IMG/VR virus record: IMGVR_UViG_3300005721_000046
DNA from: a virus
DNA: 64,000 nt
Strand: one strand, 5' to 3'
Under the pieces are notes generated by a model that ran no database searches, was not told where the DNA came from, and saw only the letters and a program-made list of their open reading frames with translations. A program made the position numbers and the translations under genes. Positions within the stretch are counted from its first letter, which is position 1. Each line of letters starts with the position of its first letter. Below are positions 18,506-36,444 of the stretch, piece after piece.

Positions 18506-18615
18506 ATTACACTCCTGCCCGGTCTCTTCTTGGGCTGTTGAGGGGGTCGGTATCTTGACCCGTTGCTGTTTTTAGCTCCAACGGTCTCTTGTTGAAGCTA
18601 AGTTAAAAGGATTAT

Positions 18616-20199: not shown

Positions 20200-20304
20200 A
20201 AAAACCTGACGAAGATATGGGAAAATAACGACATGATGTCGTTTAAATGACCGCTATAAGGTCAAACGTGGAAAGTATACGTTATAATATAACGGTTTGC
20301 AAGC

Positions 20305-21639
20305 TTATAACGATATACCAATAATGTTTGATTGACGCATCGGATGTCTGAAATCGACATAATAACCAAGAGCATCGGCTGCGTGCTCAACACCTTTGGC
20401 TTTGTCGACTTCGCGAGATCCTTCTTTATAAGTTGTTTGTTCAAGCGAGTTGATGATACCGGAACAGTTGGCGTCAACACGCAGTCTTATTTCGCCGTTG
20501 GCGGTAAACAACAATCGATTGACCGAGTTTACGCGATCTTGCACGGCCGGATGTTTGCGCTTGAAATAAATGTTTTTAAAACCGGCTTCCCGCAAAATAT
20601 CAAGCGACGTTTCGCCACGATCATGATTACGGTTATTGCCTGCCGGGTCAGGATAGATGGAAATCTGGTTGAGATAACGATAATAGCGCCGTGATAGCTC
20701 ATCGGCGGTTTCTTGAACGTTACTTCCAAAAAGTATCGCCTCGTCAACGACCCAGATTTCACCATCTGGCTGTTCTTGCAAAACGATAGACGACATCGGG
20801 TCGATGTTAAAGTCCATGCCAATGTAAATTGGTAATTTGGGATTAAACGGATAATCACCAACGTGTTTTGTTCTATCAAACGCGTAATAGACGCGACCGC
20901 TCATATTGACGAAAGAGGCTTCAAACTCTTGAGCAAAGGATTTTGGATCCATGTCATGCCGACGGGCTTCGATTTCAGAGCGCGGCACAAAAGGAGAAGA
21001 GCTTGTGGGAAATTGCCAGGACTTCCATTCGTTCTCGATAATCTTTCCGCGACTATCTGTAATATGGTCCGGCCGCTGACCTAGCTGATAAAGATCGTAA
21101 AGCCAGTTAAAACTCTTTGGCGTACCAATGAAAATAGCCCGGCCGCGCGTTGTGGCGAGTGTCGGCTGTATAACCTCTTGCCATGTTTCTTCTTTCATGT
21201 CCTGCGCTTCGTCGAGCACAACCAGATTAAGACCTACACCACGTAAAGTATCCGGTTTATCAGCGCCTTTCAAAACAATACGTGAGCCATTGACAAACTC
21301 CATCGACATTCGAGTTTCGTTTGTCTTTTTAATCCATTGATAAGGAATAATACGTTTAAGACTATCCCACATCAGATCACGAGCCATTTGATATGTTGGT
21401 GCAATATACCAAATAAGCTGATCCGATTTTTCCGCTGAAGCCACTATAATTTCGGTCGATGAAAGCTTGGTTTTACCCCAACGTCTACCCGCCACAACAA
21501 CGCGAAAGCGATGTTTGTCCTGATAAACCTTTTTCTGTAACGAATGAAGTTTGCAGGAAAAGTTATTTAGTGTCGACGACGTCATTCTTTTCCTCAAATG
21601 ATTTAATTTCCGCAACAAGGTCGTCAGTGGTTGCGTCAA
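20305..21639 (-). CDS. terL: terminase large subunit
   Basis: Walker A 'VVAGRRWGKTKL', Walker B 'LVVLDEAQD', C-terminal nuclease region. Start may be the internal Met near 21585. Confidence 0.85.
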   Translation of the reverse strand: MTQPLTTLLRKLNHLRKRMTSSTLNNFSCKLHSLQKKVYQDKHRFRVVVAGRRWGKTKLSSTEIIVASAEKSDQLIWYIAPTYQMARDLMWDSLKRIIPYQWIKKTNETRMSMEFVNGSRIVLKGADKPDTLRGVGLNLVVLDEAQDMKEETWQEVIQPTLATTRGRAIFIGTPKSFNWLYDLYQLGQRPDHITDSRGKIIENEWKSWQFPTSSSPFVPRSEIEARRHDMDPKSFAQEFEASFVNMSGRVYYAFDRTKHVGDYPFNPKLPIYIGMDFNIDPMSSIVLQEQPDGEIWVVDEAILFGSNVQETADELSRRYYRYLNQISIYPDPAGNNRNHDRGETSLDILREAGFKNIYFKRKHPAVQDRVNSVNRLLFTANGEIRLRVDANCSGIINSLEQTTYKEGSREVDKAKGVEHAADALGYYVDFRHPMRQSNIIGISL

Positions 21640-22234
21640 GTGGTAAAGCGCCGATCTCCTTGTGATGCTTCAACAGGTCTTCGTCAGTAAGGTCTTCGAC
21701 TGTGAGCTTGGGTAATCTGTTTTCATCGACGTGTTCGTCGGCTTTAAGCACGCGTAATGTGGCTTCTACGTTATCAATAACGATACGATTATATCTATTT
21801 AACGCCTTTAAATCCGGGTCGATTGCTGAAGGAGGTCTGGACGCCTTCAGATTTTCTATAACCGTGTGTCGAGCGAGCAATAATGATTGCTTTAGAACAT
21901 TTACGGCCGTTAAACGAGTTTCTTCAATCCACTGTGCACGTTTATCCGAATAACGTTCGACGGCCGCAATGGCTGCTTTATGACCGGCGGTTGCAACTTC
22001 TGCCGCGCGAGATCCTTTTACAATTCCGGCTGATTTGAATCTTTTCGACAAAGCTTGTCGTGAAATTCCAAGATCGTTGGCAATTTCGACAAGTGAGCGC
22101 TCACCTTTTTCGTAAATATCACAGGCGTTTTGAAACTCGGCTTCGGTAAGACGTTTACCGGTGACGGTCAATGTTTCTTCGTCAAAATTTGCTTCATTTT
22201 CATCAGAATTGGGTGTCATTTGCGTATAATGCAC
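21563..22234 (-). CDS. terS: terminase small subunit with N-terminal HTH
   Basis: HTH 'LVEIANDLGISRQALSKRF'. Immediately upstream of terL and overlapping it. Confidence 0.7.
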   Translation of the reverse strand: MHYTQMTPNSDENEANFDEETLTVTGKRLTEAEFQNACDIYEKGERSLVEIANDLGISRQALSKRFKSAGIVKGSRAAEVATAGHKAAIAAVERYSDKRAQWIEETRLTAVNVLKQSLLLARHTVIENLKASRPPSAIDPDLKALNRYNRIVIDNVEATLRVLKADEHVDENRLPKLTVEDLTDEDLLKHHKEIGALPLDATTDDLVAEIKSFEEKNDVVDTK

Positions 22235-22277
22235 AAAAGCCGTGCATTTCCAGTTATTTAGCCGGAGTTTTTAACAA

Positions 22278-22370
22278 ATTTTCCCGTCCTACGCGCTGTA
22301 AATATATATATATATAATTTATTATCTAATATTAATTTCTTTACAGCGCGAAGAAGGGATAACTCTCCGG
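22278..22370 (-). promoter_or_regulatory. conserved ~90-bp element, copy 1: 11-bp inverted repeat CGCGCTGTAAA/TTTACAGCGCG (22292-22302 and 22340-22350) flanking an AT-rich (TA)n spacer, upstream of terS
   Basis: Seen directly. Near-identical second copy at 33795-33870. Confidence 0.6.
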
Positions 22371-22622
22371 TCATGGTTTAGGCCAAAAAAGTTTGTAAGA
22401 AAGATCGGTCGGAATGAGCAGAGAATAGCTTCCGGATTTTTTTCTAATCAGAACGTTGTATTTAATTAAATATCGGACGGAAATTCGTACCGCACCGTAA
22501 GAGCACTCATACGGTAATAGCTCGTGAAGTTCCCGGATATTTAAAAACTTTCCCTCACCGGCTTTTTTCAGAACAATACCCATGATGGTACGCTGCTTGT
22601 CTGTCATTCGCGGCATGTTCAT
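22371..22622 (-). CDS. small winged-helix DNA-binding protein
   Basis: 83 aa, MarR/PadR-like helix pattern. Overlaps the upstream GNAT gene by 4 nt. Confidence 0.5.
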   Translation of the reverse strand: MNMPRMTDKQRTIMGIVLKKAGEGKFLNIRELHELLPYECSYGAVRISVRYLIKYNVLIRKKSGSYSLLIPTDLSYKLFWPKP

Positions 22623-23527
22623 TGTTTTAGCCTCTCAGTCGGACTTTGACGATCAAATGCAGAAAGCGGCAAACGTGCCGGCACACTTCCTTTCGGATCC
22701 GGACATTTCCAAATTCCGTAAAGCGGTGAGGCTAAGCCGATCTGCTGAATGCCCTTGATGATTTCGCGTGCCGACATTGCTGCAACGCGACGCGCTGCAT
22801 TCGATCCGGCATTAGATGTGTTTTCCAAAGCCGAGTTGCGCATGTAGAACTGTCGACATTGTTCGATCACCAATTCGCGTTCAGTTTGAGGCTTACTATC
22901 AATCTCTGCCAATATCGCTTCGTGATCGGCCGGATTTGCCTCAAAGTTCATGCGAAAAAATTTCATGACCTTTTCGTAATTGTTCGCGTTCATCGGTTTA
23001 ACGAACCGGAAGCCCGCTTTTTGGCCGAAAGTATTATACTTCGACATCGAGGATTGAATTTCCATGAAGGTGTTACCCTCAATGCGCGACACCAAGTTCA
23101 TCATACGATAGCCTGCACCAATGCCGCGATACATCGTGTCGATCACGAAGCGAGAGATGACGCGGATATTAGCATTGATGAACTTGTATCGAGCGGTATT
23201 GGTAAAACGCGTGTCGTTTCCCGGCTTTAATTTCGGCATAACGATATGTCTCTCGCGCAGCATTCCTTTTGGCGAGCCCGTTACCAGGACACCAATCGTT
23301 TCGCCGTATAGACTTAATCGCCAAAAACGTGGGCCAACGGGTAATTTTTCAGCCTTGTAGTGAAGCTCGTGCAGGAGATTCCAGTCGTCTTTAGTGCCGC
23401 GCTCCACTATCATATCGTCTAAAAGCTTAAAAGAAGCTCGTGGAGCGTCGTTTCGTTCGAATAGAGTATCGAACATGCAGACGACGTCTGGAGCGCGTGT
23501 ATGACGCTCTGTGTTGATTTTATGCAT
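22619..23527 (-). CDS. GNAT-family N-acyltransferase with N- and C-terminal extensions
   Basis: GNAT motif A 'RVISRFVIDTMYRGIGAGYRMMNLV'. 302 aa. Confidence 0.55.
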   Translation of the reverse strand: MHKINTERHTRAPDVVCMFDTLFERNDAPRASFKLLDDMIVERGTKDDWNLLHELHYKAEKLPVGPRFWRLSLYGETIGVLVTGSPKGMLRERHIVMPKLKPGNDTRFTNTARYKFINANIRVISRFVIDTMYRGIGAGYRMMNLVSRIEGNTFMEIQSSMSKYNTFGQKAGFRFVKPMNANNYEKVMKFFRMNFEANPADHEAILAEIDSKPQTERELVIEQCRQFYMRNSALENTSNAGSNAARRVAAMSAREIIKGIQQIGLASPLYGIWKCPDPKGSVPARLPLSAFDRQSPTERLKQ

Positions 23528-23539
23528 ATTTCCTGAGTG

Positions 23540-24175
23540 CTAAATGCGTTTACAATCGACTTTTTCGCGAAAACGCTTCGTGATTGTTAAATTTGGCGCA
23601 AGTTCGTCGACAAGATCGGTATGGGTCGTCGCAACCATTAATGTTTTACCGAGACGTCTTGCAACTTTGGCTACATTGAAGGCGACGACACGGGCAGTAA
23701 CGCGATCTAAAACGGCGCCGAATTCGTCGGCAACCCATACATCAGCGCCAGACTCCATGACTTTTGCAAGTTTGAGTCGATAACGCTGACCATCAGAGAG
23801 CTCGGAAGGCTTGCGGATGTAGATCCAGGCGTCGGAAATGCCTGCCTTCGCAAGAAAATCGGTTGCTGTTACCGTGTCGTCACCAATCAATTCAATTACC
23901 GGCCTCTCCTCAAGCGTAATCGAATTGAGATCCGCGACCTTGAGACCTTCTTTGCGCATTTTGGCTACAAGGTCGCGTAGGAGAAGTGATTTACCGGATC
24001 CGGATTGACCGGTGATATAGACCACGTCTCCCTGGTTTATCGAAATCGAAAGGTTGTCATAAATAACAAATTCCTTTTCCGATAAACCTAGACCAAAGGC
24101 TTCGGCAACCTCTAGAACGCGAGGGGTTCGTTCGACTGAGCTGCGAAATCTTCGGTCAATTGTGTATGTTGTCAT
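23540..24175 (-). CDS. ABC-type ATPase (nucleotide-binding domain only)
   Basis: Walker A 'GQSGSGKS', ABC signature 'LSDGQRYRL', Walker B 'VWVADEFGAVLD', H-loop 'ATTH'. Start placed at Met 'MTTYTIDRR' (24175). The longest ORF extends to 24265. Confidence 0.65.
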   Translation of the reverse strand: MTTYTIDRRFRSSVERTPRVLEVAEAFGLGLSEKEFVIYDNLSISINQGDVVYITGQSGSGKSLLLRDLVAKMRKEGLKVADLNSITLEERPVIELIGDDTVTATDFLAKAGISDAWIYIRKPSELSDGQRYRLKLAKVMESGADVWVADEFGAVLDRVTARVVAFNVAKVARRLGKTLMVATTHTDLVDELAPNLTITKRFREKVDCKRI

Positions 24176-24186
24176 TGAATTCCCGC

Positions 24187-24576
24187 TTAACCGTTTTCGT
24201 TCATCGGGAAATAGATGTTTCCGTCCACATCGGTGTAAGGCGAGTAGATGAGAACGTCGTTGCATTCGAGACTTAAAGAGCTCAAAATCGCGCCGATAGT
24301 GCCAATTTCGGGCGAATTATATGTTTCTTTGCGAATAGCCATTTCGGTGAAGAAAAAGCCGTTTTCGACATTTCGGGCTACAATAACGACGTCGTCCATT
24401 TTACCTTCGGCAACCATGTTTCGAAGTTTATCGAGCGTTTCGATTAGATCGTTTCGCCGTTCCTCTTCTGTGACATCGATCACCGGTTTTTCGTAGTTGC
24501 TGCTATTGTTCGGAAATTTTACGACGTTATCGCTATTTGTCGTGGGAGAGTTATTATGATTATCGTTATTGTTCAT
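24187..24576 (-). CDS. hypothetical protein with Asn-rich N-terminus
   Basis: ORF tightly packed between the ParB-like gene and the ATPase gene. Confidence 0.4.
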   Translation of the reverse strand: MNNNDNHNNSPTTNSDNVVKFPNNSSNYEKPVIDVTEEERRNDLIETLDKLRNMVAEGKMDDVVIVARNVENGFFFTEMAIRKETYNSPEIGTIGAILSSLSLECNDVLIYSPYTDVDGNIYFPMNENG

Positions 24577-24578
24577 GT

Positions 24579-25271
24579 TTATTCTGCCATCACTTCCGAC
24601 GATAGAGAAGTGTCCAATATTTCGATTAAGGCATCTGGTCCTTTCTTGCCTGTCTTTGTTTCGACGCGTGACATGAGTGAGTGAATCTGACGTGACTGGG
24701 CAATTGTCACGCGTTTAAAACCGAGAGCATCAGCAACTGGCGCCATAATGTCATCGGTTGCTGCGACGTTTTCTCGGTTTTGCTCGGCTTGTTCTTCGAC
24801 CGCCGATCCTATGTCGTCGACAAAATTCAAATCGCTAATTTCGCCGAGATCTTCGATTGCAAAATTAAGTTCGTTTTCGTCAAAACCGGTATCGAAAAGA
24901 GTCAAATTGCTTTCTGTGCTGGCAAGACTTTCCTGAAGTCGTTTAAGTTCCGACGAAATCATATCCATGTCGTAAGCAACCGATGTTACGCGGTTGTCGG
25001 CAAGACGTAACGCATCTGCCTCAGCTTTGGTTAGATCGGAGCGAACAACAACCGGAACCTTTTTCAGTCCAAGTTTTAGGGCGGCCAATCGTCTACCATG
25101 ACCGATAATAATCGATCCGTCTTTCCAAACGACAATTGGCTGCGTCCATCCAAATTGCTTAATTGAATTGGCGAGCTTGGCTATTTGCTTTTCATCGTGA
25201 AGTTTGGCGTTATTCTCATACGGCTTTAGTTTTTCGATATCCCAAATCTCAGTTGGTAGGGGTTGCGACAA
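24579..25271 (-). CDS. ParB-like nuclease domain protein 1
   Basis: ParB N-terminal domain pattern 'IVVWKDGSIIIGHGRRLAALKLGLKKVPVVV'. Confidence 0.7.
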   Translation of the reverse strand: MSQPLPTEIWDIEKLKPYENNAKLHDEKQIAKLANSIKQFGWTQPIVVWKDGSIIIGHGRRLAALKLGLKKVPVVVRSDLTKAEADALRLADNRVTSVAYDMDMISSELKRLQESLASTESNLTLFDTGFDENELNFAIEDLGEISDLNFVDDIGSAVEEQAEQNRENVAATDDIMAPVADALGFKRVTIAQSRQIHSLMSRVETKTGKKGPDALIEILDTSLSSEVMAE

Positions 25272-25341
25272 TTTTTTTCTCTCCAGAATTGTATGCCGTC
25301 GCTAGTTACTTTTTTTAATTATAGCGATAAATGGCCGTCAT

Positions 25342-25998
25342 TTATTTCAGGTAAGGCATCAAAATTTGAACCAGGGCGTCACCGACGTTTGTCAGTTCGT
25401 CGGCTTCTGTGAAGCCGTATTCTTTTTGAGTGGTCGCGATAAGCGCGGTTATGCGTTCAGCGTCCGCGATAGGTACTTTAAATCGCATAATTGTGTGCGT
25501 TTTTGCAGGCTTTGCGACGGGCTCCAAATCTTCCGGTGTATCAAGTTCAGTTTCAACATCCTCCTCAAGTTCCAACATTTCTAACGCTATATTTGATGAA
25601 AAGATTTCGTTGATGTCAGATTCGCCATAAGGAAGAAAATCTTTGAGCTCGTTAGTGTCCAAAGACTTTAACAATTCGGCTAATTCAATAGCGTCGTCTG
25701 TGCCGTATCGTGCGTTGTCGGCCAAACTGATTTCTTTGGCGCGTTTGTCGTCGATACAACCAAGATTAAAAACAGGTAATTTATCCAAGCCTAGTTCGAT
25801 GGCCTGTTCCCATCGATGCTGTCCGCCGAGAATCTCGTATACGCCCTCTTCTATCTCTCGAACGATAATGGGTTTAAAAACACCATTACGTTTGAGTGAA
25901 GCGCGTATTTTGCGCTCGTTTTCGGGCGTTACTTTATTCGTATTCCATGAGTTTTTTCGGAGCTGGCTTGGCTTGAGTTCAAGAAACTGTGCTGCCAT
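25342..25998 (-). CDS. ParB-like nuclease domain protein 2
   Basis: 'IIVREIEEGVYEILGGQHRWEQAIELGLDKLPVF' ParB/Srx fold pattern. Acidic middle region like protein 1. Confidence 0.7.
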   Translation of the reverse strand: MAAQFLELKPSQLRKNSWNTNKVTPENERKIRASLKRNGVFKPIIVREIEEGVYEILGGQHRWEQAIELGLDKLPVFNLGCIDDKRAKEISLADNARYGTDDAIELAELLKSLDTNELKDFLPYGESDINEIFSSNIALEMLELEEDVETELDTPEDLEPVAKPAKTHTIMRFKVPIADAERITALIATTQKEYGFTEADELTNVGDALVQILMPYLK

Positions 25999-26090
25999 GT
26001 TGCTCTTTTTTTATAAATACCGTTATGTTATAACATAACCATATAATTTTAACCCGCATTTTGAAATAATTCAAGTAAAAAGGATATTTA

Positions 26091-27665
26091 ATGTCTCTTG
26101 TTCGTATAGCTAAGAACGCGATTTTAGCAAAATTGATTGAACCAGATCATAATATCGTTGTTTTCGTGAATAATCTTCTTTCCTATGACGTAAATGTCGG
26201 TGGAGCGTTCGGTTGGTCAGGAAAGTCATCTTTTTTTACCATGTATAACCGAACATTTCCGGCGGGCTTTGTCTATTTGGTTACGGAAGAGCTTAGTAAA
26301 GCTGGTCATGACGTCAGAATTATTCAAAGTGCGTTACCCAAACCTACAGGACCTGAAAATCCCATTGTCGATAGCTTTGGTAACGATGATCCGCGTTATG
26401 ATTATCAGATAAAAGCATTGCGACAGGTAGAAAAGTATGGCGCGGGTATTGTGCGTGTTGCAACCGGTGGCGGTAAGAGCAAGATCGCCAAATTGGTGAT
26501 GAAAAGATTTCCCGGCGTTACGCTTTTTCTGTCTACACGAGCAATTTTGCTTCGTCAGATGGATAAACAGCTCAAAGAAATCGGTATGAACACCGGAATG
26601 ATTGGCGACGGTGAAATGCATTTTGTTCCCGGCGTTAATCTTGGAATGGTGCAAACGCTCGTACAGGCTCTTGAGGAGCCAAACTTAAATAACGAAATTC
26701 TTGCAGTGATTGCCGCAGAACACAAAAAGAACAAGAAGGTTTTAACGCGTCAACAAGCCGAAAAGACTGCCAGATTAGTTTACGAGCGAAAAATTAAGCG
26801 GCGCGACGCGATAAGCAAGTTTCTTTCGATGGTTAATGTTGTCATTGGTGAAGAAGCCCATGAAGCAGGCGGCAATTCTTATTATAAAATTCTACAACAT
26901 TGTAAAAACGCGAGAATTCGCGTTGCATTAACTGCAACGCCATTCATGCGTTCTGACATGGAAGATAATATGCAGCTCATGGCCGCTTTCGGACCAATTT
27001 TGATCGACATTAGTGAGAAAATGTTGATTGATCGAGGCATTTTAGCAAAGCCTTTCTTCAAGTTTGTCGATAGTCAGCCTCATCCCAAGCTCTTTAAGAC
27101 ATCGCCATATGAACGAGCCTTGAAATATGGCTATACCGAGAACGAATTTTTGATAAATGACATGATCCGTGACGCAAAACACGCAAAATTACATGGTTTG
27201 CCGGTGTTGACGCTTGTGACGCGCAAGAAGTTTGGCGAGATTTTGCAAAAGGCTTACGAAAAAGCAGGAATTCGAGCTGTTTTTCTTAAAGGCGACGACG
27301 ATAGCGTCGAGCGGAGCGAAAAATTAAACGCTTTAGCAAGCGGAAAGATAGACGGTATTATCGGAACGACAATTTTGGATGTTGGTGTCGACGTTCCAGC
27401 GATTGGTCTTGTTCAATTAGCAGGTGGCGGTAAAGCCGAAGTAGCTCTTAGACAGCGTATAGGTCGCGGATTACGCGCGAAAAAAGGCGGACCGAATGTC
27501 GCTTTCATTGCTGATTATTCCTGCAACAAAAACACCTATCTGAGCGTTCATGCCGAGCAGCGATTTTCGATAATCAAAAACACACCCGGCTTTGCCGAAG
27601 GAATTTTGCCGAAGGGTAAGGATTTTGATTGGAATATTTTTGAAAAGTCGCTTGTTGATGCGTAA
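26091..27665 (+). CDS. superfamily-2 DNA helicase (DEAH-like)
   Basis: Motif I 'ATGGGKSK', motif II 'VIGEEAHEA', motif VI 'QRIGRGLR'. Confidence 0.8.
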   Translation: MSLVRIAKNAILAKLIEPDHNIVVFVNNLLSYDVNVGGAFGWSGKSSFFTMYNRTFPAGFVYLVTEELSKAGHDVRIIQSALPKPTGPENPIVDSFGNDDPRYDYQIKALRQVEKYGAGIVRVATGGGKSKIAKLVMKRFPGVTLFLSTRAILLRQMDKQLKEIGMNTGMIGDGEMHFVPGVNLGMVQTLVQALEEPNLNNEILAVIAAEHKKNKKVLTRQQAEKTARLVYERKIKRRDAISKFLSMVNVVIGEEAHEAGGNSYYKILQHCKNARIRVALTATPFMRSDMEDNMQLMAAFGPILIDISEKMLIDRGILAKPFFKFVDSQPHPKLFKTSPYERALKYGYTENEFLINDMIRDAKHAKLHGLPVLTLVTRKKFGEILQKAYEKAGIRAVFLKGDDDSVERSEKLNALASGKIDGIIGTTILDVGVDVPAIGLVQLAGGGKAEVALRQRIGRGLRAKKGGPNVAFIADYSCNKNTYLSVHAEQRFSIIKNTPGFAEGILPKGKDFDWNIFEKSLVDA

Positions 27666-27697
27666 GCATAGAAGGAAATAAGGAAATAGGCATATAA

Positions 27698-27737
27698 GCG
27701 AGTAAGGAAGTACGGATTTCTTTAGTTCCTTACTCGC
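27698..27737 (+). promoter_or_regulatory. 12-bp perfect inverted repeat GCGAGTAAGGAA/TTCCTTACTCGC with a 16-nt loop, directly after the helicase stop and next to GGAAATAAG repeats
   Basis: Seen directly. Possible terminator or operator. Confidence 0.45.
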
Positions 27738-27824
27738 CCCTCCCCTACCCGCGTCATTTCCGTGCATTTTCTCGCTATAAAATATTATCGACAGCAACGT
27801 TGATTAAGTGAATGCGAGGAAAAA

Positions 27825-28499
27825 ATGCAGGAAACGCCCAAAATTTTTGCTATTTGCGGTCAACCAAAGTCGGGTAAAACCACGCTTGCTCAGATGCTGA
27901 AAAACAGACTTGGCTATCAGATCATTGATGACGCTCGACCATTACGTTCAATCGCGACACAGCATTTTGGCTTATCGTTGGCCGATGTAATTACTCAGGC
28001 GGGTAAATCAAAGCAAGTCGAATTTATGGGACGTCAATGGACGGTAAGACAGATTTTGGGCGAGATCGGTAACGCGCTTGAGGATAAATTCGGTGCCGAT
28101 ATTATTCCTGAGCTTGCATATATGCAGATGTGCCGGATGATGGAGCAGAAATCAATCAAGCACTTTGTTGTACCTTCCGTAAGACGTGATCAGGGTGTCT
28201 ACTGGAAATCAAAAGGCGCGCTTGTTGTTGAGATTTGTAACCCGAACGTTCCGGAGAGTGCGTTTGAATTCGATCAATATAACAAATCGGTCATCGATAT
28301 TCGTTTAATTAATGATTTTGATCCGGAACGAATAGCGGATCCTAATCGAGAACGTCGTCGGCTTTATAATGAATTCGTTGGGCATGTTCAGAAGAAGTTT
28401 GTTAAGCAGATTCAGTCGGGTGTTTTCTGCGGCGGCGTCATTCAAAATACTCCAGAACATATGCCACAGACATTATCGTGTGACGAAAGCGTTCTGTAA
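27825..28499 (+). CDS. P-loop nucleotide kinase (dNMP kinase-like)
   Basis: Walker A 'ICGQPKSGKTT'. 224 aa. Confidence 0.55.
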   Translation: MQETPKIFAICGQPKSGKTTLAQMLKNRLGYQIIDDARPLRSIATQHFGLSLADVITQAGKSKQVEFMGRQWTVRQILGEIGNALEDKFGADIIPELAYMQMCRMMEQKSIKHFVVPSVRRDQGVYWKSKGALVVEICNPNVPESAFEFDQYNKSVIDIRLINDFDPERIADPNRERRRLYNEFVGHVQKKFVKQIQSGVFCGGVIQNTPEHMPQTLSCDESVL

Positions 28500-28609
28500 T
28501 AAGGAAATAAGCATATAGGCATCTACTTTTTTCTCTAAATAGGGAATTTCCTTGCGGTATTTGCTTATTTGGTTATGTTTAAGGCATAGATTCGTATTAG
28601 GGAATTACA

Positions 28610-29263
28610 ATGCCTTTAATCATTGCCTGTTTGTCACAAAAAGGCGGAGTGGGTAAAAGCACTCTTGCCCGACTTATTGCCAGAACCTACGCAGTCGGTG
28701 GATGGTCGGTAAAAATTGCCGACTTTAACACGACACAGTTGAGTTCGTATAATTGGGCGCAAATTCGCAACGGTGAAGGCCATAAACCAAAAATCGATTC
28801 AGAGCCTGCCACCTCGCCTTCTCTTCTCAAACGCGAAAAATATGATCTGGTTGTCGCTGATGGTCGACCGGACTCCGATCAATCAAGTTTGGAAATCGCG
28901 CGAATAGCTGATCTGATTGTTATACCAACCGGTCTACCGCTAGACGACTTGATGCCACAGTTGCGCTTTGCCAATGAGCTCGTTGAAAAAGGCATAGATC
29001 CTCAAAAAATTCTTTGGGTGCTCAACAAGATCACCGATAGCATAACTGCGGTTGCAGAGGCGCGCGATTATATTCGTCAGGATCAGGATTATCGCATCGC
29101 CGCTCAAGAGCTCATGCACAAGATCAGTTACCAGAAAGCGCAAAACCATGGACTGGCTTTATCGGAAGTTGGTCGTAAGGTTGGTTCGTTGGAAGAAAAG
29201 GCTGATCTATTGGCGGCCGAAATCGTAGAGCTTGTTACCAAGTTGACGGAGGATAAAGAATGA
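28610..29263 (+). CDS. parA: ParA/MinD-family partition ATPase
   Basis: Deviant Walker A 'SQKGGVGKST'. 217 aa (small, type Ib size). Confidence 0.8.
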   Translation: MPLIIACLSQKGGVGKSTLARLIARTYAVGGWSVKIADFNTTQLSSYNWAQIRNGEGHKPKIDSEPATSPSLLKREKYDLVVADGRPDSDQSSLEIARIADLIVIPTGLPLDDLMPQLRFANELVEKGIDPQKILWVLNKITDSITAVAEARDYIRQDQDYRIAAQELMHKISYQKAQNHGLALSEVGRKVGSLEEKADLLAAEIVELVTKLTEDKE

Positions 29264-29514
29264 CTGAAGACGTAAAAACTAGAGCAGCAGTTCCGCCGCG
29301 TTCAAACAAAAGCTTTTTGCCACACGAAATCACAGCAAAGAAAGCAGGCGCAGCAAATAACATGCGCTCGGAAAAGACCGTTAAGACGTCTTTGCTGATT
29401 ACCGAAGAGCAACATCGCGATATGCGCTTGGCACGTGTCGAGTACAATCGGCCAGTCAATGACATTCTGGTTGAAGCGTTTTACCAGTGGCTCGATCGGC
29501 AGCGTAAGAAATAA
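29260..29514 (+). CDS. small ribbon-helix-helix-like partition partner (ParG-like)
   Basis: 84 aa overlapping the parA stop by 4 nt. Basic N-terminus and C-terminal helix pair typical of RHH centromere-binding proteins. Confidence 0.5.
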   Translation: MTEDVKTRAAVPPRSNKSFLPHEITAKKAGAANNMRSEKTVKTSLLITEEQHRDMRLARVEYNRPVNDILVEAFYQWLDRQRKK

Positions 29515-29570
29515 TATCCTGGTCTTCGAGACACAAAGAAGCAAAACGGTAGATAGGTAAAGAGGGATTA

Positions 29571-29636
29571 GCGTAGATAAGGAAATAAGCATTTGCGCAT
29601 TTAGGTATACGCCTATTTAGGTACATGCTTATTTCT
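29571..29636 (+). repeat. symmetric repeat element GGAAATAAGCAT ... ATGCTTATTTCT enclosing two ATTTAGGTA(C/T)AC direct repeats
   Basis: Seen directly. Immediately downstream of the parA-RHH operon. Candidate centromere or operator. Confidence 0.5.
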
Positions 29637-30069
29637 GGTCAAACGTCAACGACGTAACTTCGCCACCTGAAAACACATCAAACTGCATTGCGATTTTTAT
29701 AGCTTCCTCGGCGTTAGCACCCATTCCAAGCGCGCCATAAGCATATTTGCAGCCAGAACCAATTGCGTAATAATCGGATGAGAGCGGACCTGATGGTGTG
29801 TAGTTATCGCAGTAATAGAACACGCCTTCTTGGGTTATATGTAATGCCGCAAAATCTGGATCGGTGTCTGGTATTTCTTCAGGTCTTGCTCCGTTATTCA
29901 ACCAGTTGGCGATTTGCTCGGAAAAGCCTGGATGCGCCGTTGTAACGCCAACGAGACTGTTATTCTTCAGCTTGTGAATCTTTAATTTGTTGCCAATTGG
30001 TGTCGCATCGCCTGAGTAGGCACGCGAGTCAGCAGCAAGCACGCCATCACGATAAACAATTGTCGTCAT
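29629..30069 (-). CDS. HslV/proteasome-beta-like N-terminal nucleophile hydrolase
   Basis: 'MTTIVYRDGV' aligns with HslV 'MTTIVSVRRNG' (Thr1 nucleophile). Lys at the HslV K33-equivalent position ('NKLKIHKL'). 'YYAIGSGCKYAYGALG' aligns with 'LIAIGSGGPYAQAAAR'. An alternative start at 30108 would add a 13-aa pro-peptide. Confidence 0.65.
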   Translation of the reverse strand: MTTIVYRDGVLAADSRAYSGDATPIGNKLKIHKLKNNSLVGVTTAHPGFSEQIANWLNNGARPEEIPDTDPDFAALHITQEGVFYYCDNYTPSGPLSSDYYAIGSGCKYAYGALGMGANAEEAIKIAMQFDVFSGGEVTSLTFDQK

Positions 30070-30180
30070 TTTAATCCATGCAATAGAGGGGAAATGCGCG
30101 CATATCATTTGCGCTTAAGGCGACCGAATTCTCAAAGTCGCTTTTGTACTTTTAATCCCAACTTTCGATAAAATCAATAA

Positions 30181-30268
30181 ATAAGGAAATAAGTGAATAG
30201 GGGAATAAGGAAATAAGCGAATAAGCGAAGAGGGGAATACGGAAATAAGGAAATAGGTAAATAGAGGA
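30181..30268 (+). repeat. array of about 9 GGAAATAAG / GGGAATAAG / CGAATAAG direct repeats
   Basis: Seen directly. Upstream of the HslV-like gene. Confidence 0.7.
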
Positions 30269-30470
30269 GGACAGAAACCTCAAGGATTGCCGGGGTTTTT
30301 TTAAAGATCGAGCAGGGGAGGTTTGGATTTGAAAGTGTCGCGGCAACTGGAGGCATCCCCGAGATGCTTATTGCGTTGGGCTAAGACTTTCGCTATAGTA
30401 TATTTATCAAGAGAACAGAAAAACAAAATATCTTGATAGTAAAACAACAATTTAATGAAAGAGAAACAAA

Positions 30471-31115
30471 ATGTCAAAAGCAAAACTTAACAAAGAAAAC
30501 AACAAAGAAAACAACAAAAAAGAAACAATCTTAAAAGTTGCTAGAACAATTGAAAACGAATACGTAAAAGCAATTGATGAACGTCTTCAATTAGCACTAG
30601 CAAAAAATGTTTGCGCTGCAAACGAGAAGAAAATGCAAAACATGAAGCGCATGTTGTCAAGTGAACGCTTGTGTAATCTTTTAAGAGATGCAAAAGTTGA
30701 CGCGAATGCATTTTCTCGTGCAATTTACGCAAGCGAAAAAGTCGTAAAATTCGCAACACAAGCAATCGCATTTGACGCGACAAAATTAAACGAAAACACG
30801 CAAGCAATCTTCAAAACTGCAATCAATTGTGCAAAAAACAACGTCGAGTTTACAAAAGATGACGCGTGCGCTTCAATAAGCAAAGATTTAAACGTTGATG
30901 AAAATAAAAAAGCGTATGTTTTTCGTAGAAACATTATTCAACAAGTTTCAACAATTGCTGCACAAAGTCAAACAAGTCTTGACGCGTTGAAAACGCTTCA
31001 CATTATTAGCGACAATGCGCAAAAGAAAAATGTCTATGACGTAAATCTTGACAGCGAATTGACAAAAGCGCTTTGCAAAAACTTTAATATCGACTTGAAT
31101 GCAAAAGCTGCATGA
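30471..31115 (+). CDS. hypothetical protein, paralog of the 32831-33640 gene
   Basis: A-rich, low-GC ORF. 'INCAKNNVEFTKDDA' aligns with 'IKCSENNVSFTQG' in the paralog. Confidence 0.5.
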   Translation: MSKAKLNKENNKENNKKETILKVARTIENEYVKAIDERLQLALAKNVCAANEKKMQNMKRMLSSERLCNLLRDAKVDANAFSRAIYASEKVVKFATQAIAFDATKLNENTQAIFKTAINCAKNNVEFTKDDACASISKDLNVDENKKAYVFRRNIIQQVSTIAAQSQTSLDALKTLHIISDNAQKKNVYDVNLDSELTKALCKNFNIDLNAKAA

Positions 31116-31828
31116 TGAAAGTCAAACGAAAGCGAGTGAATTAACTCACTCGCTTTCAAATGCAAAACCCCTACGGGGCGTCCCACGATTTCATGCGGGG
31201 CGTCCCACGATTCGACACAAATACCAAACCATGGCTACCGGATTGATTATTTCCGGAATGGCGTTCGAAACGGTTTTCAAATGGTCGTCCGTCTTTTGTC
31301 TTGAAATAATTGGCAACCAGAATGGTGTCCATGCTGAAACAATCGGAAACCGGAATTGGCAACCAGAATGGCAACCAAGTTTAGGGCTGAATCAAAATGA
31401 CCGGCACTCTAATTCAGATCCAACGGGAAACCGCTTTTATAACCATCTCCAATGGCGAATTTTTGTCAGGCATTTTGGGCGCGTTTGACCAATTTTGGAC
31501 AGGTTTTCGGCAGGTTTTTCGCTGGTTTCGGGCGGTTTTCAGGTGGTGTTGGGCGAATTTTGGTGGTGGCGGTGTCGGTTTTGGCGGTGTTGGGCGGTTT
31601 TTTTCGGCAGGTTTTCAGGCGTTTTTCAGGCGTTTTTAGGTGAAATCCACGCATCCCACGGTTTAAATCTCGCCGTTCCTAGCCGACGTGTCCATTCCCC
31701 GGAATCCAAGCAAATCCAAAACCGCAAGCTATATCTCGGCTTCTAGGAATCTTGCCATTCCCCGAATTATCCATGGTTTTTAAGAAGCGTATTGAAAAGG
31801 GCTAGAGTTTAGCTCTTTTCAATGTGTT
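31116..31828. repeat. repeat-dense non-coding region. Contains a 16-bp direct repeat GGGGCGTCCCACGATT x2 (31175-31190, 31197-31212), TTGGCAACCAGAATGG x2.5 and about 15 G-rich units with T4-5 tracts phased at about 10-11 bp (31440-31640). Candidate origin / bent DNA
   Basis: Seen directly. ORFs called here on both strands are low-complexity artefacts. Confidence 0.6.
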
Positions 31829-32137
31829 TCACTGTTGCGCTTGTGAGAACGTTAAAGCCTTTAATTCAGCGCGCTTTTGATTAAGTTGCTTAACATATCG
31901 CGCGCGTCTAAATTTCATAACATTGTAGCGTTTGTTATAAAGTTCGATTAATTCATCAACCGAGCGATTTAAAGCGCTTGCAATAAGGCGAATACGCTCA
32001 CGAGTGTTTTTAACAATCTCGCTAAGCGCGATTATGATTTTCGGTTTCTCAAAGCGTCTCGTTGCAAGAGCGACGCTTGCAGCGTTAAGCAATTCAAATT
32101 CTTCGAAAAGGCGTTCGAATGAGCTGCGAAAAGACAT
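31829..32137 (-). CDS. hypothetical protein
   Basis: 102 aa ORF. Confidence 0.4.
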   Translation of the reverse strand: MSFRSSFERLFEEFELLNAASVALATRRFEKPKIIIALSEIVKNTRERIRLIASALNRSVDELIELYNKRYNVMKFRRARYVKQLNQKRAELKALTFSQAQQ

Positions 32138-32489
32138 TTTTTTTCTCTTTCTGTTATTTGATTATCATTAAAACAAAGACAAAAAGAGCGACGATAAGCG
32201 CGATCTCTTCAATTACGTCATAAAGAACAATGCGATTAAGTTCTTTTTCATAATCAAAATGCTGTCTCATTTGTTTCTCTTTCTGTTTGTTTTTTACATT
32301 TTGATAATAGCGTTTCAGAGCGTTGAAATCTCGAGGTGTCGAACGGTGAATACGCTTGCTGATTGGCCTGAATCGGCCGGAAAAAATTGGATAACGCTGT
32401 TAATCGGCCTCAAAAAAAAACGCAGGATTAGCGGCGTTTTGGCCTAAAGGTTCCGTAGATGTTATCGGTTGGCCGGAACGCCAAGGATT

Positions 32490-32658
32490 TTAAGGAAATA
32501 TGTACATAGGCAAATAGGCCGATAAAGAAATAGGTAAATAGGGAAATAAGCACATAAGGAAAGACACACGCCCGTGGGATCAGCGGCCAAGGTGCAAGCG
32601 GCCAAGGTGTTAGTGAGGATAAAGAAATAAGGAAATAAGGAAGTAGGTAAGTAGGTAC
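32490..32658 (+). repeat. GGAAATA-type repeat arrays (two clusters) plus GCGGCCAAGGTG x2
   Basis: Seen directly, including 'GGAAATATGTACATAGG', which resembles the palindromic operator half-site. Confidence 0.6.
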
Positions 32659-32689
32659 AAAAAAAAGACGCTGACCGAAGCCAGCGTCA
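32659..32689 (-). terminator. rho-independent terminator after gene 32831-33640
   Basis: Minus-strand RNA stem GACGCUG/CAGCGUC followed by U8-9. Confidence 0.7.
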
Positions 32690-32830
32690 GTTAAGAGCGA
32701 TCAGAATAGAGAAACACAAGAATCGCCCTTGAAAAGTTTTATACAATTGAAGAAAAATTCAAAAGCATAATAATAAATTAAAGCGTCTAGTGAGCACTAG
32801 ACGCCTATGAGATATCGTTGTTGAGTTGTT

Positions 32831-33640
32831 TCATTCATGAAACATTTTAATGAGTTGACGTGTTACAGGTGTATCTTTCAAAGCGATTACATTGTCGTCA
32901 CTCTTTTCATTATTGCTAGCAATTGCATCAAAAACCTCTAATGACGCGATCATTTGCGAACGCTGCGCTTGAGCCGTTGCTTTTGAAAGGTCGTGTCGCG
33001 TCAAATAACGCGCGTCACTGTGTGAGATGCGATATTCGCGCGATAATGACGCGAGTTGCAGACCCTGTGTAAAAGATACGTTATTTTCGCTACATTTGAT
33101 CATAGAACGTATAAAACAGTTGATTGTCTTATTGCTTGAATAAAAACCTTTCAACGCACGAGCGATCTCTGCAATCTTGAAAAACGCATAGACGTTGAAA
33201 CGGTTTTTAACGCTTTGCTGTTTATTTACAAAACTCTCATTAATGTGCAATGCGACGAAAACCTGACAAATGTCGTCACTCATGAACTGATTTTTTAGAA
33301 CCGTGAGATTATTGATCATTTTCATCGTGCAATTTTCTTTTGAACGCTCATAATCGATGCGAGCGTCAAAGGCGACAGCAAAATGCATGCGCATTTCTTC
33401 AATCTTTTTTACGTCTTCGATTGCAGTAAATATGTTATTGATATCACCTGATATGCTCTCACCGATATCAACTGACTTGATTGCGTTTGTATTGTTTAAC
33501 GAGACAGTTTTAACAACCGGTGCTTTCGCGATCTCTTCTGTTGTTTTGGTCTCTTCAATCTCTTTCGCATTAAGCGCGACGGCCTGCGCTGTAATATCGT
33601 CGAAAATCGCGGTGTTCGTCATGACGTCTGCAAGGTTCAT
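32831..33640 (-). CDS. hypothetical protein, paralog of 30471-31115
   Basis: See paralog. Followed by a terminator. Confidence 0.5.
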   Translation of the reverse strand: MNLADVMTNTAIFDDITAQAVALNAKEIEETKTTEEIAKAPVVKTVSLNNTNAIKSVDIGESISGDINNIFTAIEDVKKIEEMRMHFAVAFDARIDYERSKENCTMKMINNLTVLKNQFMSDDICQVFVALHINESFVNKQQSVKNRFNVYAFFKIAEIARALKGFYSSNKTINCFIRSMIKCSENNVSFTQGLQLASLSREYRISHSDARYLTRHDLSKATAQAQRSQMIASLEVFDAIASNNEKSDDNVIALKDTPVTRQLIKMFHE

Positions 33641-33794
33641 TTTGTTTCTCTTTCTGTTTTGTTTTCGCGTTAATATTTTGATTTCATTGCGAAAAATTGT
33701 TTTACAAGAAAGACTATAGTCAAAAAAAACAAACGTGTCTCAAGGCTTATAACGGTTTGTGACGGTTTGAAATTCCGGAACTTTGAACAAAGAG

Positions 33795-33870
33795 ACGTTC
33801 CCGTCCTACACGCTGTAATATATATAATATATCTAACATTATAATATTAATTTACAGCGCGTAGGCAGGA
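33795..33870 (-). promoter_or_regulatory. conserved ~90-bp element, copy 2: IR CCTACACGCTGTAA/TTACAGCGCGTAGG (33805-33818 and 33852-33865) around an AT-rich (TA)n spacer
   Basis: Seen directly. Flanks are also shared with copy 1 ('TTCCCGTCCTAC', 'CTCCGG'). Confidence 0.6.
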
Positions 33871-33893
33871 AAGAGACATCTCCGGGCGTTCTA

Positions 33894-34745
33894 TTAGATA
33901 TCTCTAACGCACTTAAAATGCCTTAAGTGCGTTGTTAAAATCACTTCTCCTAAGAATTCGTTGAGACCCAAAATATTATAGTGCTCAACTATTAACTCGT
34001 CGGTGTCGTCACGAGCCGTTATCGCTAAAACCGAAGGAACACGGTGTTTTTCAAAAGCTAAGGCGTAATGTTCCTCTCTGTATTGCGGCTCTTTTACGGT
34101 CTTTGGGGTTTTTCGTAAAACCGTCTTCGATTGAACCGTTCGATAATAAGCGGCTTTCTGCATAACTTCGATTAAATGAGCGCGGTCGCTTTCACTTAAC
34201 TCACTTAGCTTTTTGTTTTTTTCAAATTTTGAAACGAGATCCTTGAGATCGTTGACTGTCGAAAGCTTATTCTTTTTGCAATATTCTTCTGAGGCTTCTA
34301 AAAGCGTTAATAATGTCGGATCACAACGTTGTTGACATTTGAAGTGTTCAATTTTTTCTAGTGAGGAATTTTTAAAGAATTTATTTAGCTTTTCAATCGA
34401 GATAAATTCGGCTGTTAAATCGGCGATGGCTTCCTGGGGTTTATGATGCATTTTTACAAAATAAACAGGAAATTCCATCAGGCGTGGACGGCTGATGGCG
34501 TAATAGATAGCCTCTTTCGTTTTTTCATCGAGTATTACTTCCTCAAAATAAGCTGCGTCTTTTATATTGAGCAGCGTTATGTTTGTATCCCAGTCGCCTT
34601 TTAATTTACGTCGAACGCGTCTCTTGTAGGAATCGCCGGCAGATAATATTAAATCCTCGGCTGTAACGAGATCGTAGATTTCGCAAAAATCCTCCGATTG
34701 TCTCAAGAGATCCATATAGAGAGTCGGTGACTTGCTGTCAGGCAT
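33894..34745 (-). CDS. hypothetical protein, paralog family B member 1 (two internal repeats)
   Basis: Aligns along its length with 35023-35868 ('LEKIEHFKCQQRCDPTLLTLLEASEEYCKKNKLS' versus 'EEKLQNFKCLKPCACATVFIELLKSSEEYCKEHELS'). Start chosen at the Met aligning with the paralog start. The longest ORF starts at 34841. Confidence 0.55.
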   Translation of the reverse strand: MPDSKSPTLYMDLLRQSEDFCEIYDLVTAEDLILSAGDSYKRRVRRKLKGDWDTNITLLNIKDAAYFEEVILDEKTKEAIYYAISRPRLMEFPVYFVKMHHKPQEAIADLTAEFISIEKLNKFFKNSSLEKIEHFKCQQRCDPTLLTLLEASEEYCKKNKLSTVNDLKDLVSKFEKNKKLSELSESDRAHLIEVMQKAAYYRTVQSKTVLRKTPKTVKEPQYREEHYALAFEKHRVPSVLAITARDDTDELIVEHYNILGLNEFLGEVILTTHLRHFKCVRDI

Positions 34746-34831: not shown

Positions 34832-34847
34832 GGAAATACATATTTCC
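34832..34847. promoter_or_regulatory. perfect 16-bp palindrome GGAAATACATATTTCC (operator-like) within a 45-bp conserved promoter block
   Basis: Seen directly. Identical palindrome and flanks at 35936-35951. Confidence 0.6.
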
Positions 34848-35022
34848 CTATAAGCCTATTTCTGCATATGCGTAGAAGAAGGTAGATAGACTACCCGGAA
34901 GCCATGGTTTTGAGTTTATGTTCTTGGTTTTTTTGATGCGTTATATCTTGACAAAACCTTCATCAAAGACACAAAAACAGAGAAAGCTTTTTTGCTTTCT
35001 CTGTTGTCATTCTTTTACTCTA

Positions 35023-35868: not shown

Positions 35869-35935
35869 TTTCTTTGTTAATTAATTGAACAATAAAGTTA
35901 TAGCGACGAGCAAAAGCGCCTTCAAAAGGCTTCGT

Positions 35936-35951
35936 AAGGAAATACATATTT
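35936..35951. promoter_or_regulatory. second copy of palindrome GGAAATACATATTTCC, 68 nt upstream of paralog B member 2
   Basis: Seen directly. Confidence 0.6.
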
Positions 35952-36009
35952 CCCTAAAGGCGTATATCCTTATATATTTAGGCGAATGTCCGGGAAATCG
36001 CGTATTAAT

Positions 36010-36330: not shown

Positions 36331-36444
36331 ATTGGTTTATGGCTTCAGGTTTACGGATTATGCAGGAAAAGATAGGGCGAAGAGGGGAGGGGTGAATTTA
36401 CCTATTGAAATCCAAAGAGCACGGCGGCGCGGAATTTTTCATCG

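Follow-up and report, generated by a model that had tools for sequence, protein, structure and literature searches.

The 64,000-nucleotide virus record IMGVR_UViG_3300005721_000046 of IMG/VR (this whole stretch is called the window below) carries at positions 28610-29514 a two-gene cassette, composed of parA and an 84-amino-acid (84-aa) partner gene. The cassette is best read as the type Ib (ParF/ParG-like) partition operon of a siphovirus-type phage-plasmid of approximately 100 kb; we put the probability of this reading at roughly 0.7. The window represents a lineage found in honey-bee gut metagenomes (ELLE19 scaffolds and Joint Genome Institute 'HBC' contigs), whose host is probably Bartonella. 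Six genes span 24579-29514: two ParB_N genes, a superfamily 2 (SF2) helicase gene, a P-loop kinase-like gene, parA, and the 84-aa open reading frame (ORF). A preliminary description of this DNA had recognised a type-Ib-like cassette, two tandem ParB-like genes, a candidate centromere and signs of a phage-plasmid lifestyle, and all the features it listed are present where it placed them.

Judged from the protein sequences, the assignment of parA and its partner to the type Ib class appears well supported. ParA begins with MPLIIACLSQKGGVGKST, a deviant Walker A motif of the form KGGxxGK[ST] in which KGGVGKST occupies residues 11-18, and it is of the small type without the N-terminal DNA-binding extension, as expected in type Ib systems. 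It matches Pfam CbiA (3.3e-7) and PHROG 164, 'ParA-like' (6.7e-22), and reaches 2.2e-21 with NCBIfam ParA_partition, which is below the cut-off of that model. A profile of the ParA family aligns over its full length with ParA/ParF of TP228 (5u1g, 4dzz; E ~1e-6), residues 5-209 of ParA falling onto residues 3-205 of ParF. Its identity is 68% with the ParA of a 23-kb Bartonella plasmid and 51-66% with the ParAs of the RHEph10/pLM21S1 family. Against lineage L007 the ratio of non-synonymous to synonymous substitution rates (dN/dS) of parA is 0.029, with saturated synonymous sites (dS >1.3); this is the strongest conservation among the genes tested, and a decaying or idle ParA does not fit such a value.

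What kind of protein does the partner gene encode? It lies directly 3' of parA in every lineage examined, an arrangement typical of type Ib operons. A profile of the partner family (59 sequences) finds ParG (1p94) at 6.9e-5 and omega (1irq) at 8e-3, across the ribbon-helix-helix (RHH) domain. In an AlphaFold2 model, made with an alignment of database homologues, a low-confidence tail of ~40 residues precedes an extended segment and two helices (49-62 and 66-83, with a predicted local distance difference test score, pLDDT, >90), and every credible Foldseek match of this model in the Protein Data Bank is an RHH protein (ORF56, CdbA, AmrZ, CopG, Arc, ParD). An RHH fold is predicted on these grounds. 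The disordered N-terminal tail (~40 aa) carries conserved T(R/K)A, FLP and AANNM motifs. Some sources name partner homologues HicB-type antitoxins; this assignment was rejected, as they are always coupled to parA and never stand beside a toxin gene.

Both genes appear to be maintained by selection. The pair is carried by more than 100 index blocks; in every contig read, parA and the partner gene are intact and under strong purifying selection, and there is no sign of the pseudogenisation in relatives that the preliminary description had raised as a counter-argument. Between the window and L007 the partner gene shows 12 non-synonymous and 48 synonymous differences. The cassette as first described, with its deviant Walker A motif and an 84-aa partner running over the parA stop codon, is confirmed, with a 4-nt overlap and with the profile matches to ParF and to ParG and omega.

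A second line of evidence comes from short repeats. The word GGAAATAAG, which had been noted in arrays around the cassette, has 10 exact matches in the window against 0.80 expected, a number reached in none of 100 shuffles, and six of the ten fall in 27674-30249. The word is embedded in an 8-bp unit repeated in tandem, RAATARGN. With Tandem Repeats Finder, 11.1 copies at a period of 8 were counted at 30179-30268, and additional arrays were located at 27672-27688, 32506-32556, 32619-32642, and 46046-46085. A scan with a position-weight matrix derived from the largest array, in which at least three units in 8-bp register were required, yielded 12 array segments in ~10 places and none in 20 single-strand shuffles. 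Forward segments lie at 27660-27715, 28497-28520, 29543-29566, 30171-30274, 32496-32567, 32617-32656, and 46090-46113, and a further, doubtful one falls within coding sequence at 37787. The reverse segments are 27712-27735, 28555-28578, 34838-34861, and 46046-46093. Several sites mix forward and reverse units. The convincing arrays are all intergenic and lie within 27.6-46.1 kb, and none is found in the structural or nucleotide-metabolism modules.

Between bee-gut lineages, the arrays keep their motif and position despite the saturation of synonymous sites, while the number of units changes. The array at 27660-27735 is conserved in L007 and L016, the array at 30171-30274 keeps its position in both with a varying number of units, and the arrays at 32496-32656 have counterparts in L007 (12903-12971) and L016 (13602-13796). 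Intrinsic curvature or a simple AT-rich element was considered as the basis of the arrays and rejected, given a period of 8 and not 10-11 bp and the GC-containing motifs that stand at the equivalent positions in relatives.

Which protein reads the boxes? In the window, and likewise in 11 further lineages, arrays with an 8-bp period flank the operon on either side, again as expected of a type Ib system. When the 90 bp 5' of parA and the 70 bp 3' of the partner gene were pooled over 12 lineages, autocorrelation peaked only at 8 and 16 (z = 5.7 and 6.0 upstream; 7.5 and 6.6 downstream), all other periods remaining at or below 2.3. Every lineage has 8-bp-period units at the position equivalent to 28497-28578, each with its own motif. 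The box motif is lineage-specific and tracks the class of the partner's predicted beta-strand. Bee-gut lineages combine the strand KTSLLITEEQH with the box AAATAAGG; the Bartonella HY406 plasmid combines KTSITFPEPIH with GGTAT / TATTT; pRlX6 and pLM21S1 combine MTFNMPxDWH with ATAGCTA; RHEph10, Y2_11 and Pararhizobium combine DLNFKVDPEFH with GATTTAGCGAAAT; and Shinella combines DMSFKVPETFH with AAATAGCG. Between the window and two Rhizobiaceae plasmids, ParA is 56-63% identical and the partner 25-28%; over nine other aligned lineages, the identity of the partner to that of the window ranges from 21 to 54%.

The association was put to a prediction test in three further lineages picked by beta-strand class (L115, L116 and L117). 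The motif was predicted correctly in two of them, namely ATAGCTA in L115 (MTFVMPRDWH) and TTAGCGAAAT in L116 (DLNFKVDPEFH); L117 was intermediate. A 23-kb plasmid of Bartonella sp. HY406 shares only parA (68%) and the partner gene (54%) with the window, its other genes being repA, restriction-modification, and HipA, and GGTAT boxes 8 or 16 bp apart flank its parA-partner pair. On these sequence comparisons, the repeat arrays are likely to be the binding sites of the partner. The record of the HY406 plasmid (NZ_CP104897.1; L099, L131) holds two inverted, protein-identical repA-partner-parA blocks in which the same protein accessions occur twice.

How does this operon compare with known systems? 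In TP228, ParG binds degenerate ACTC boxes separated by 4-bp AT-rich spacers, 12 in parH and eight in OF, in direct and inverted orientation and with one dimer per box (PMC3130281). The window shares with TP228 ParF/ParG a small ParA (~206-217 aa) with a deviant Walker A motif, a partner of ~76-84 aa, encoded directly downstream, whose N-terminal tail is flexible and whose C-terminal domain is an RHH, and degenerate boxes at an 8-bp period, direct and inverted, with 8-12 per array and one array at the operon promoter. However, the similarity is at the profile level only, and the window box is AAATAAGG-like where that of TP228 is ACTC. Moreover, the window arrays are also found 3' of the operon and at ~8 further intergenic sites up to 17 kb away, and the replicon is a tailed-phage genome of ~100 kb.

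Omega of pSM19035 (inc18), the protein reached by the partner profile at 8e-3, is likewise an RHH protein that works with a small ParA. Its targets are tandem direct or inverted repeats 5' of several promoters, and it is both a regulator and a partition protein. In contrast to the 8-bp period of the window, the repeats of pSM19035 are 7-bp heptads; the host belongs to another phylum, and the window has more sites. In par2 of pB171, also of type Ib, centromere-like repeat clusters likewise flank parAB on both sides; the repeat unit and the protein sequences differ from those of the window.

To what kind of replicon does the operon belong? Phage DNA fills the window from one end to the other, with a GpJ-like tail gene truncated by its left end, an SbcC-like gene truncated by its right end, and tape measure, portal, terminase, ribonucleotide reductase, and thymidylate-synthase-type genes between them. 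Neither host flanks nor an att site, which the preliminary description had named as marks of an integrated element, were found in the 64 kb. A megablast search with 1-20000, 20000-34000, and 34001-58900 against phage and plasmid collections found no close DNA relative; the sole matches, two at 76-77% over ~330 bp each, pointed to plasmids of Rhizobium beringeri and Shinella zoogloeoides. The circular plasmids pRlX6 (R. beringeri, 119 kb) and that of S. zoogloeoides (117 kb) have the gene order of the window: terminase, and further on ABC ATPase, hypothetical gene, and the two ParB_N genes, then divergently the helicase, and further on ParA, small ORF, and HslV-like peptidase.

A tblastn search with ParA retrieved plaque-forming Rhizobium siphophages of 115-122 kb (RHEph10, RHph_N1_15, RHph_Y2_11, RHph_X66, B1VFA, and V1VFA-S). 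Plasmid forms of the family, circular and 115-119 kb in size, occur in Sinorhizobium (pLM21S1), Pararhizobium (p5), and two Methylobacterium strains, and several of its members are circular plasmids in complete genomes. Among the matches listed in a profile scan of genome contigs with the ParA alignment, all ParAs were at most 40% identical and stood in unrelated contexts. By its shared gene order and its structural, packaging, ParB_N, helicase, and ParA homologues, the window is a sequence-divergent member of the published RHEph10/pLM21S1 phage-plasmid family. Plasmid-like prophages with REP and PAR modules have pLM21S1 and RHEph10 as their published archetypes (PMC4447125). Pfeifer et al. 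list pLM21S1 as a known phage-plasmid and place RHEph10 at the edge of the AB community, related to the SSU5 type (PMC7969092). The phages B1VFA and V1VFA-S show 93-94.5% nucleotide identity to plasmid pRlX6 and phage RHph_X66 taken together (PMC12509600).

The group of RHEph10, pLM21S1, pRlX6, and B1VFA resembles the window in ParA (51-66% identity), in the ParB_N proteins (54-62%), and in its size class of ~100-122 kb. Unlike this group, the window shows no similarity at the DNA level, has a GC content of 42-45% as against ~59%, and comes from the bee gut. It has another box motif and much longer arrays, it carries a frameshifted plasmid-type recombinase and a ParE island, and no RepC-like gene was seen in its 64 kb. 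The SSU5-type phage-plasmids (siphoviruses of 103-112 kb) have a full-length ParB_N homologue of ~39% identity beside an ABC ATPase; the window proteins are otherwise only distantly similar to theirs. The comparison with known phage-plasmids that had been recommended led to the RHEph10/pLM21S1 family, with SSU5 sharing the arrangement of ParB_N and ABC ATPase.

The phage-plasmid reading is well supported by this comparative evidence, and the lifestyle proposed in the preliminary description fits a family of circular plasmids and siphophages. For the bee-gut lineage itself, the plasmid state is inferred from the relatives and from contig sizes. Its longest contigs measure 99-105 kb in several samples. 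The par genes have ~80 kb 5' and 20 kb 3' of them in one long contig and 24 kb 5' and 79 kb 3' in another, and the window is unbroken across both break points. These differing start points fit the circular permutation of a genome of ~100-105 kb, and it is from par gene positions and contig sizes together that a circular genome is proposed. A search for the tail-L gene of the bee-gut contigs of 100-105 kb returned only clusters of at most 82% identity, and look-ups matched other lineages. Among the best 120 of 321 tail-protein clusters, the longest contig has 120,956 bp and most long ones 100-121 kb; the clusters include plasmid-sized contigs from isolate genomes.

Several observations weigh against a partition operon on a phage-plasmid. 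The similarity in sequence to ParF, ParG, and omega is weak (E 1e-6 to 8e-3), and the partner on its own has no match in Pfam, PHROG, or NCBIfam. No clean motif emerges in L104 (Methylobacterium) or L117, and the lineages that enter the periodicity and co-variation analyses are related, so that they are not fully independent. The arrays are scattered over ~19 kb and not confined to the operon as in TP228; some or all of them could serve regulation only, or another protein. Mitomycin C did not induce pLM21S1 (PMC4447125). One related contig is 168 kb long, and one distant homologue is found on a 267-kb contig. No RepC or other initiator was matched in the 64-kb window, which holds ~60% of the genome; the search covered 28 window ORFs outside the par region with Pfam, ten of them also with PHROGs and six also with NCBIfam. 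Finally, the frameshift of the recombinase gene lies in a G run and could be either a real inactivation or a homopolymer sequencing error.

The preliminary description had taken the symmetric repeat at 29571-29636 as the candidate centromere. It is an imperfect palindrome with 24-nt arms (29582-29605 and 29612-29635) that are 75% complementary and separated by a 6-nt spacer. The palindrome is written in the 8-bp register of the boxes: forward units run up to AAATAAGC and are followed by ATTTGCGC, ATTTAGGT, ATACGCCT, again ATTTAGGT, ACATGCTT, and ATTTCTGG. The element is conserved, since a short box array trails the partner stop codon in every lineage. As a candidate centromere, it is only one of ~10 arrays, and it can also fold into a hairpin. 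The array at 30171-30274, which has no RNA structure (z = +1.4), is by analogy a centromere candidate at least as good, as it resembles parH more closely.

Could the palindrome be mainly a bidirectional terminator between the convergent partner and HslV-like genes, and not a centromere? As RNA, the element at 29543-29636 can form a hairpin with an uninterrupted 12-bp stem, at -28.2 kcal/mol (z = -5.1) for the plus strand and -20.2 kcal/mol (z = -3.25) for the minus strand. A hairpin is seen at the equivalent place in relatives (z = -7.4 in L007), and in RHEph10, Y2_11, Pararhizobium, and pRlX6 a T run comes after GC-rich stems there. On the other hand, the stem of the window is AU-rich with no U tract after it on the plus strand, and its arms are built of par boxes in the 8-bp register. 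The relatives also carry a separate short box array beside the terminator, which argues that box binding at this position is conserved. A role that is mainly that of a terminator is a serious possibility but still the less probable one; the two roles are compatible, and the element may be a binding site and a terminator at once.

The position of the arrays raises the question of regulation. The word TCGCTATA occurs eight times in the window against 1.95 expected (at 27772, 30390, 38919, and 52594, and on the minus strand at 25320, 35899, 46273, and 52605). It stands ~40-110 bp 5' of several gene starts, resembles a -10 word, and is probably a family-specific -10 or promoter element. The same CGCTATA word also stands before genes in the relatives from Rhizobium and Shinella and in L007; in the Rhizobiaceae relatives an inverted repeat, TAAGTAA-N5-TTACTTA, comes after it and may be an operator. 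The arrays adjoin TCGCTATA-marked promoters and 5' leaders, which suggests that the partner also regulates several operons; the spread of ~10 arrays over 27.6-46.1 kb likewise suggests the regulation of several promoters. A more far-reaching proposal, which we regard as tentative, would make the partner a master regulator of the prophage state. It would coat ~10 dispersed arrays (>50 boxes) of the maintenance and early region, silence or tune several operons, and make the entire region a distributed centromere. The lysogeny decision and partition would then both depend on a single small RHH protein, which has co-diversified with its sites into several specificity classes throughout a widespread family of alphaproteobacterial phage-plasmids.

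Alternatively, the arrays might be promoter-associated regulatory sites only, read by the RHH protein or by another regulator (for example one of the XRE-type helix-turn-helix proteins at 41887-43448), with a ParA that in this lineage has a role other than segregation, or none. In favour of this, promoters or 5' leaders of several unrelated genes between 27.6 and 46.1 kb have arrays close by, most RHH proteins repress transcription, and members of the family have been isolated as plaque-forming phages. A purely regulatory role is nevertheless unlikely: the arrays co-vary with the RHH beta-strand, they flank the parA-partner pair on a small plasmid that has only this pair in common with the phage, and parA is the most strongly conserved of the genes tested. 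Moreover, regulation and partition are not exclusive, as ParG and omega do both.

Is the bee-gut element maintained as a plasmid at all? A strictly virulent phage or an integrating prophage might carry the par cassette as baggage. The lineage is known from metagenomic contigs alone, a tyrosine recombinase gene is present in the window, and there is the related contig of 168 kb; a virulent phage with terminal repeats would also give circularly permuted contigs, and relatives have direct terminal repeats of 3.6-3.9 kb. Several points make this explanation decidedly unlikely. The two par genes are intact and under strong purifying selection, the recombinase is of plasmid type and frameshifted in the window, and a ParE toxin-antitoxin pair is present. 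Among 104 index blocks, no contig longer than 200 kb carries the element, and near-identical relatives of the Rhizobium phages occur as a circular plasmid.

The claim of two tandem ParB-like genes held in part: the two ParB_N proteins, encoded on the other strand, share 30% identity as paralogues (E 6e-7), and are probably no part of the partition system. Small ParF-like ParAs pair with small RHH-type partners in type Ib systems. In protein 1, only the N-terminal domain (about residues 16-123) matches ParB/Noc, and neither a helix-turn-helix nor a C-terminal dimerisation domain was detected in either protein. With an N-terminal match only and a small ParA in the operon, the genes do not fit a type Ia (P1/F-like) or chromosomal ParB-CTPase system. 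They are separated from parA by 2.6 kb with the helicase and kinase-like genes, and belong to a separate block with an ABC ATPase beside the terminase/packaging genes. Full-length homologues beside an ABC ATPase are found in SSU5, 110-kb Klebsiella phages, and the Pseudomonas nickie group; outside these, only the N-terminal domain recurs, mostly in methyltransferase fusions. The ParB_N proteins are 54-62% identical across lineages whose box motifs are unrelated, and are thus unlikely to read the arrays. The 23-kb HY406 plasmid keeps the par pair and the arrays but lacks a ParB_N gene; thus, the ParB_N genes are probably not partition genes.

That the ParB_N proteins are nonetheless the centromere-binding proteins of a ParA/ParB system, with the arrays or another site as their parS, is highly improbable: both have a CTPase-type domain of the ParB N-terminal kind, a GxxRxxA-like motif (GHGRRLAA) can be read in the sequence of protein 1, and their genes are close to parA, but their ParB/Noc matches end at about residue 95-123, the genes are divergent and lie in an ABC ATPase/terminase block as in SSU5, and neither their conservation across different box motifs nor their absence from the HY406 plasmid accords with such a role. 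Between the terminase small-subunit-like gene and the ParB_N genes (22619-24576) lies a conserved block of three proteins: a 302-aa protein with no family match, a soluble ABC-type ATPase (241-aa ORF, phrog_293), and a 129-aa protein.

How might the type Ib operon work? By analogy with ParG on parH and OF, the RHH dimer of the partner would read the 8-bp-spaced boxes and coat the arrays cooperatively, with one dimer per box. The flexible tail, which bears the T-R/K-A motif and whose counterpart in ParG of TP228 is functionally important, is predicted to recruit the small ParA and to stimulate its ATPase activity. ParA would then separate array-bound genome copies over the nucleoid, so that daughter cells inherit the low-copy plasmid prophage. 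The array at 28497-28578, which overlaps the parA promoter region, is a predicted operator through which the operon would regulate itself, and is possibly a centromere half-site. The partner is probably also a regulator of multiple promoters in the maintenance and early region, as is omega of pSM19035. The ParB_N genes would be dispensable for this mechanism.

Table 1. Genes and box arrays of the partition region and of the neighbouring maintenance functions, in window coordinates.
Feature	Positions	Strand or orientation	Assignment and remarks
ParB_N (ParB/Srx) protein 1, 230 aa	24579-25271	-	PF02195 1.8e-9; phrog_930 1e-75
ParB_N protein 2, 218 aa	25342-25998	-	PF02195 1.8e-12; phrog_723 2.4e-59
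SF2 helicase gene	26091-27665		divergent from the ParB_N genes
Box array between helicase and kinase-like genes	27660-27735	forward, then reverse	5' of the TCGCTATA word at 27772
P-loop, deoxynucleoside-monophosphate-kinase-like gene	27825-28499
Box array 5' of parA	28497-28578	forward 28497-28520, reverse 28555-28578	position-weight scan
parA, ParF-like partition ATPase, 217 aa	28610-29263	+	ORF, Pfam CbiA, PHROG 164
Partner ORF, parG-like predicted centromere-binding protein, 84 aa	29260-29514	+	overlaps the parA stop by 4 nt
Box array 3' of the partner gene	29543-29636	forward 29543-29590, then reverse to 29636	includes the palindrome
HslV/proteasome-like peptidase gene	29629-30108		converges on the par operon; phrog_1040 1.5e-33
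Largest array, 11-12 tandem 8-bp units	30171-30274	+	AAATAAGG consensus; between the divergent HslV-like gene and the 214-aa gene
Two arrays	32496-32567 (~9 units), 32617-32656 (~5 units)	+	intergenic, between the 102-aa and 269-aa genes
Short reverse array	34838-34861	-	start of the 315-aa gene; position-weight scan; weakest call
Array just 5' of the DUF3560 gene start	46046-46113	five reverse units 46046-46093, forward 46090-46113
Plasmid-type tyrosine recombinase gene	49142-50239 (frameshifted remainder to 50262/50268)	+	Pfam Phage_integrase
ParE toxin gene	50249-50578	-	PF05016 4.8e-7
68-aa ORF upstream of ParE, toxin-antitoxin pair with ParE	50580-50786	-	ORF

Other maintenance functions lie to the right of the operon (Table 1). 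Recombinases 55-56% identical to that of the window are found on 1137 mostly alphaproteobacterial plasmids, in one case beside repABC. The integrase frameshift seen in the preliminary description was located after ...AARKG (codon ~334, ~50143), the catalytic GH..YY end (GISLPEAMQQSGHKSIQQAARYYND) continuing in another frame to 50262, and the toxin-antitoxin pair suspected there corresponds to the ParE gene and the ORF upstream of it. These genes and one for a DUF1612+HTH_13 protein form an island of higher GC content (0.46) at 47937-50786. Two assemblies of related elements stop at about 49.6-49.9 kb of the window, which suggests that the island is a variable accessory insertion. The HslV-like gene downstream of the par operon keeps its position throughout the family and is annotated as 'peptidase S14' or 'HslV family' in relatives. 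In L115 (4956-5237), a gene with the Acb2/Tad1-hairpin domain of the anti-CBASS/anti-Thoeris sponge family adjoins it, downstream of the par operon. No Rfam families or tRNA genes were found in the window.

Two non-coding regions rich in repeats, 31160-31800 and 35869-37025, could be origins. The latter, of 1.16 kb and 5' of a 281-aa gene, is dense in repeat families and may be a replication origin or iteron region. It includes ten 10-bp units at 36447-36556 (AATAAGAACG, minus strand), which share the AATAAG core of the par boxes at a period of 10 bp, and also TTTACGTTTAGGCCA (three copies), CCTAGGAACGGCTGAG (four copies), and AAACCAAGG/AAACCATGG (seven copies). The region at 31160-31800 contains GGGGCGTCCCACGATT twice, GGCAACCAGAATGG three times, runs of GGCGGTTTT/GGCAGGTTTT with a period of ~11 bp, and GCCATTCCCC twice. 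Its GCGTCCCACGG and GCCATTCC motifs are kept in other bee-gut lineages, and repeat-rich counterparts are present in L007 (11827-12258) and L016 (12610-12963).

What does this operon add to the picture of the RHEph10/pLM21S1 family? With it, the range of this little-studied family reaches beyond soil rhizobia into the honey-bee gut, and probably into Bartonella; to our knowledge, no such phage-plasmid has been described previously in the honey-bee gut. That an RHH centromere-binding protein can also act as a regulator was known before, and current concepts remain unchanged. The pair annotated in the family as 'ParA plus hypothetical protein' gains a concrete proposed mechanism of the ParF/ParG type, in which the box motif is predictable from the beta-strand. 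The most interesting aspect lies in the dispersed arrays and the classes of protein/box specificity. These natural classes, in which the beta-strand is set against the 8-bp box, amount to a data set on how RHH proteins read DNA, and they could supply orthogonal partition or repressor parts.

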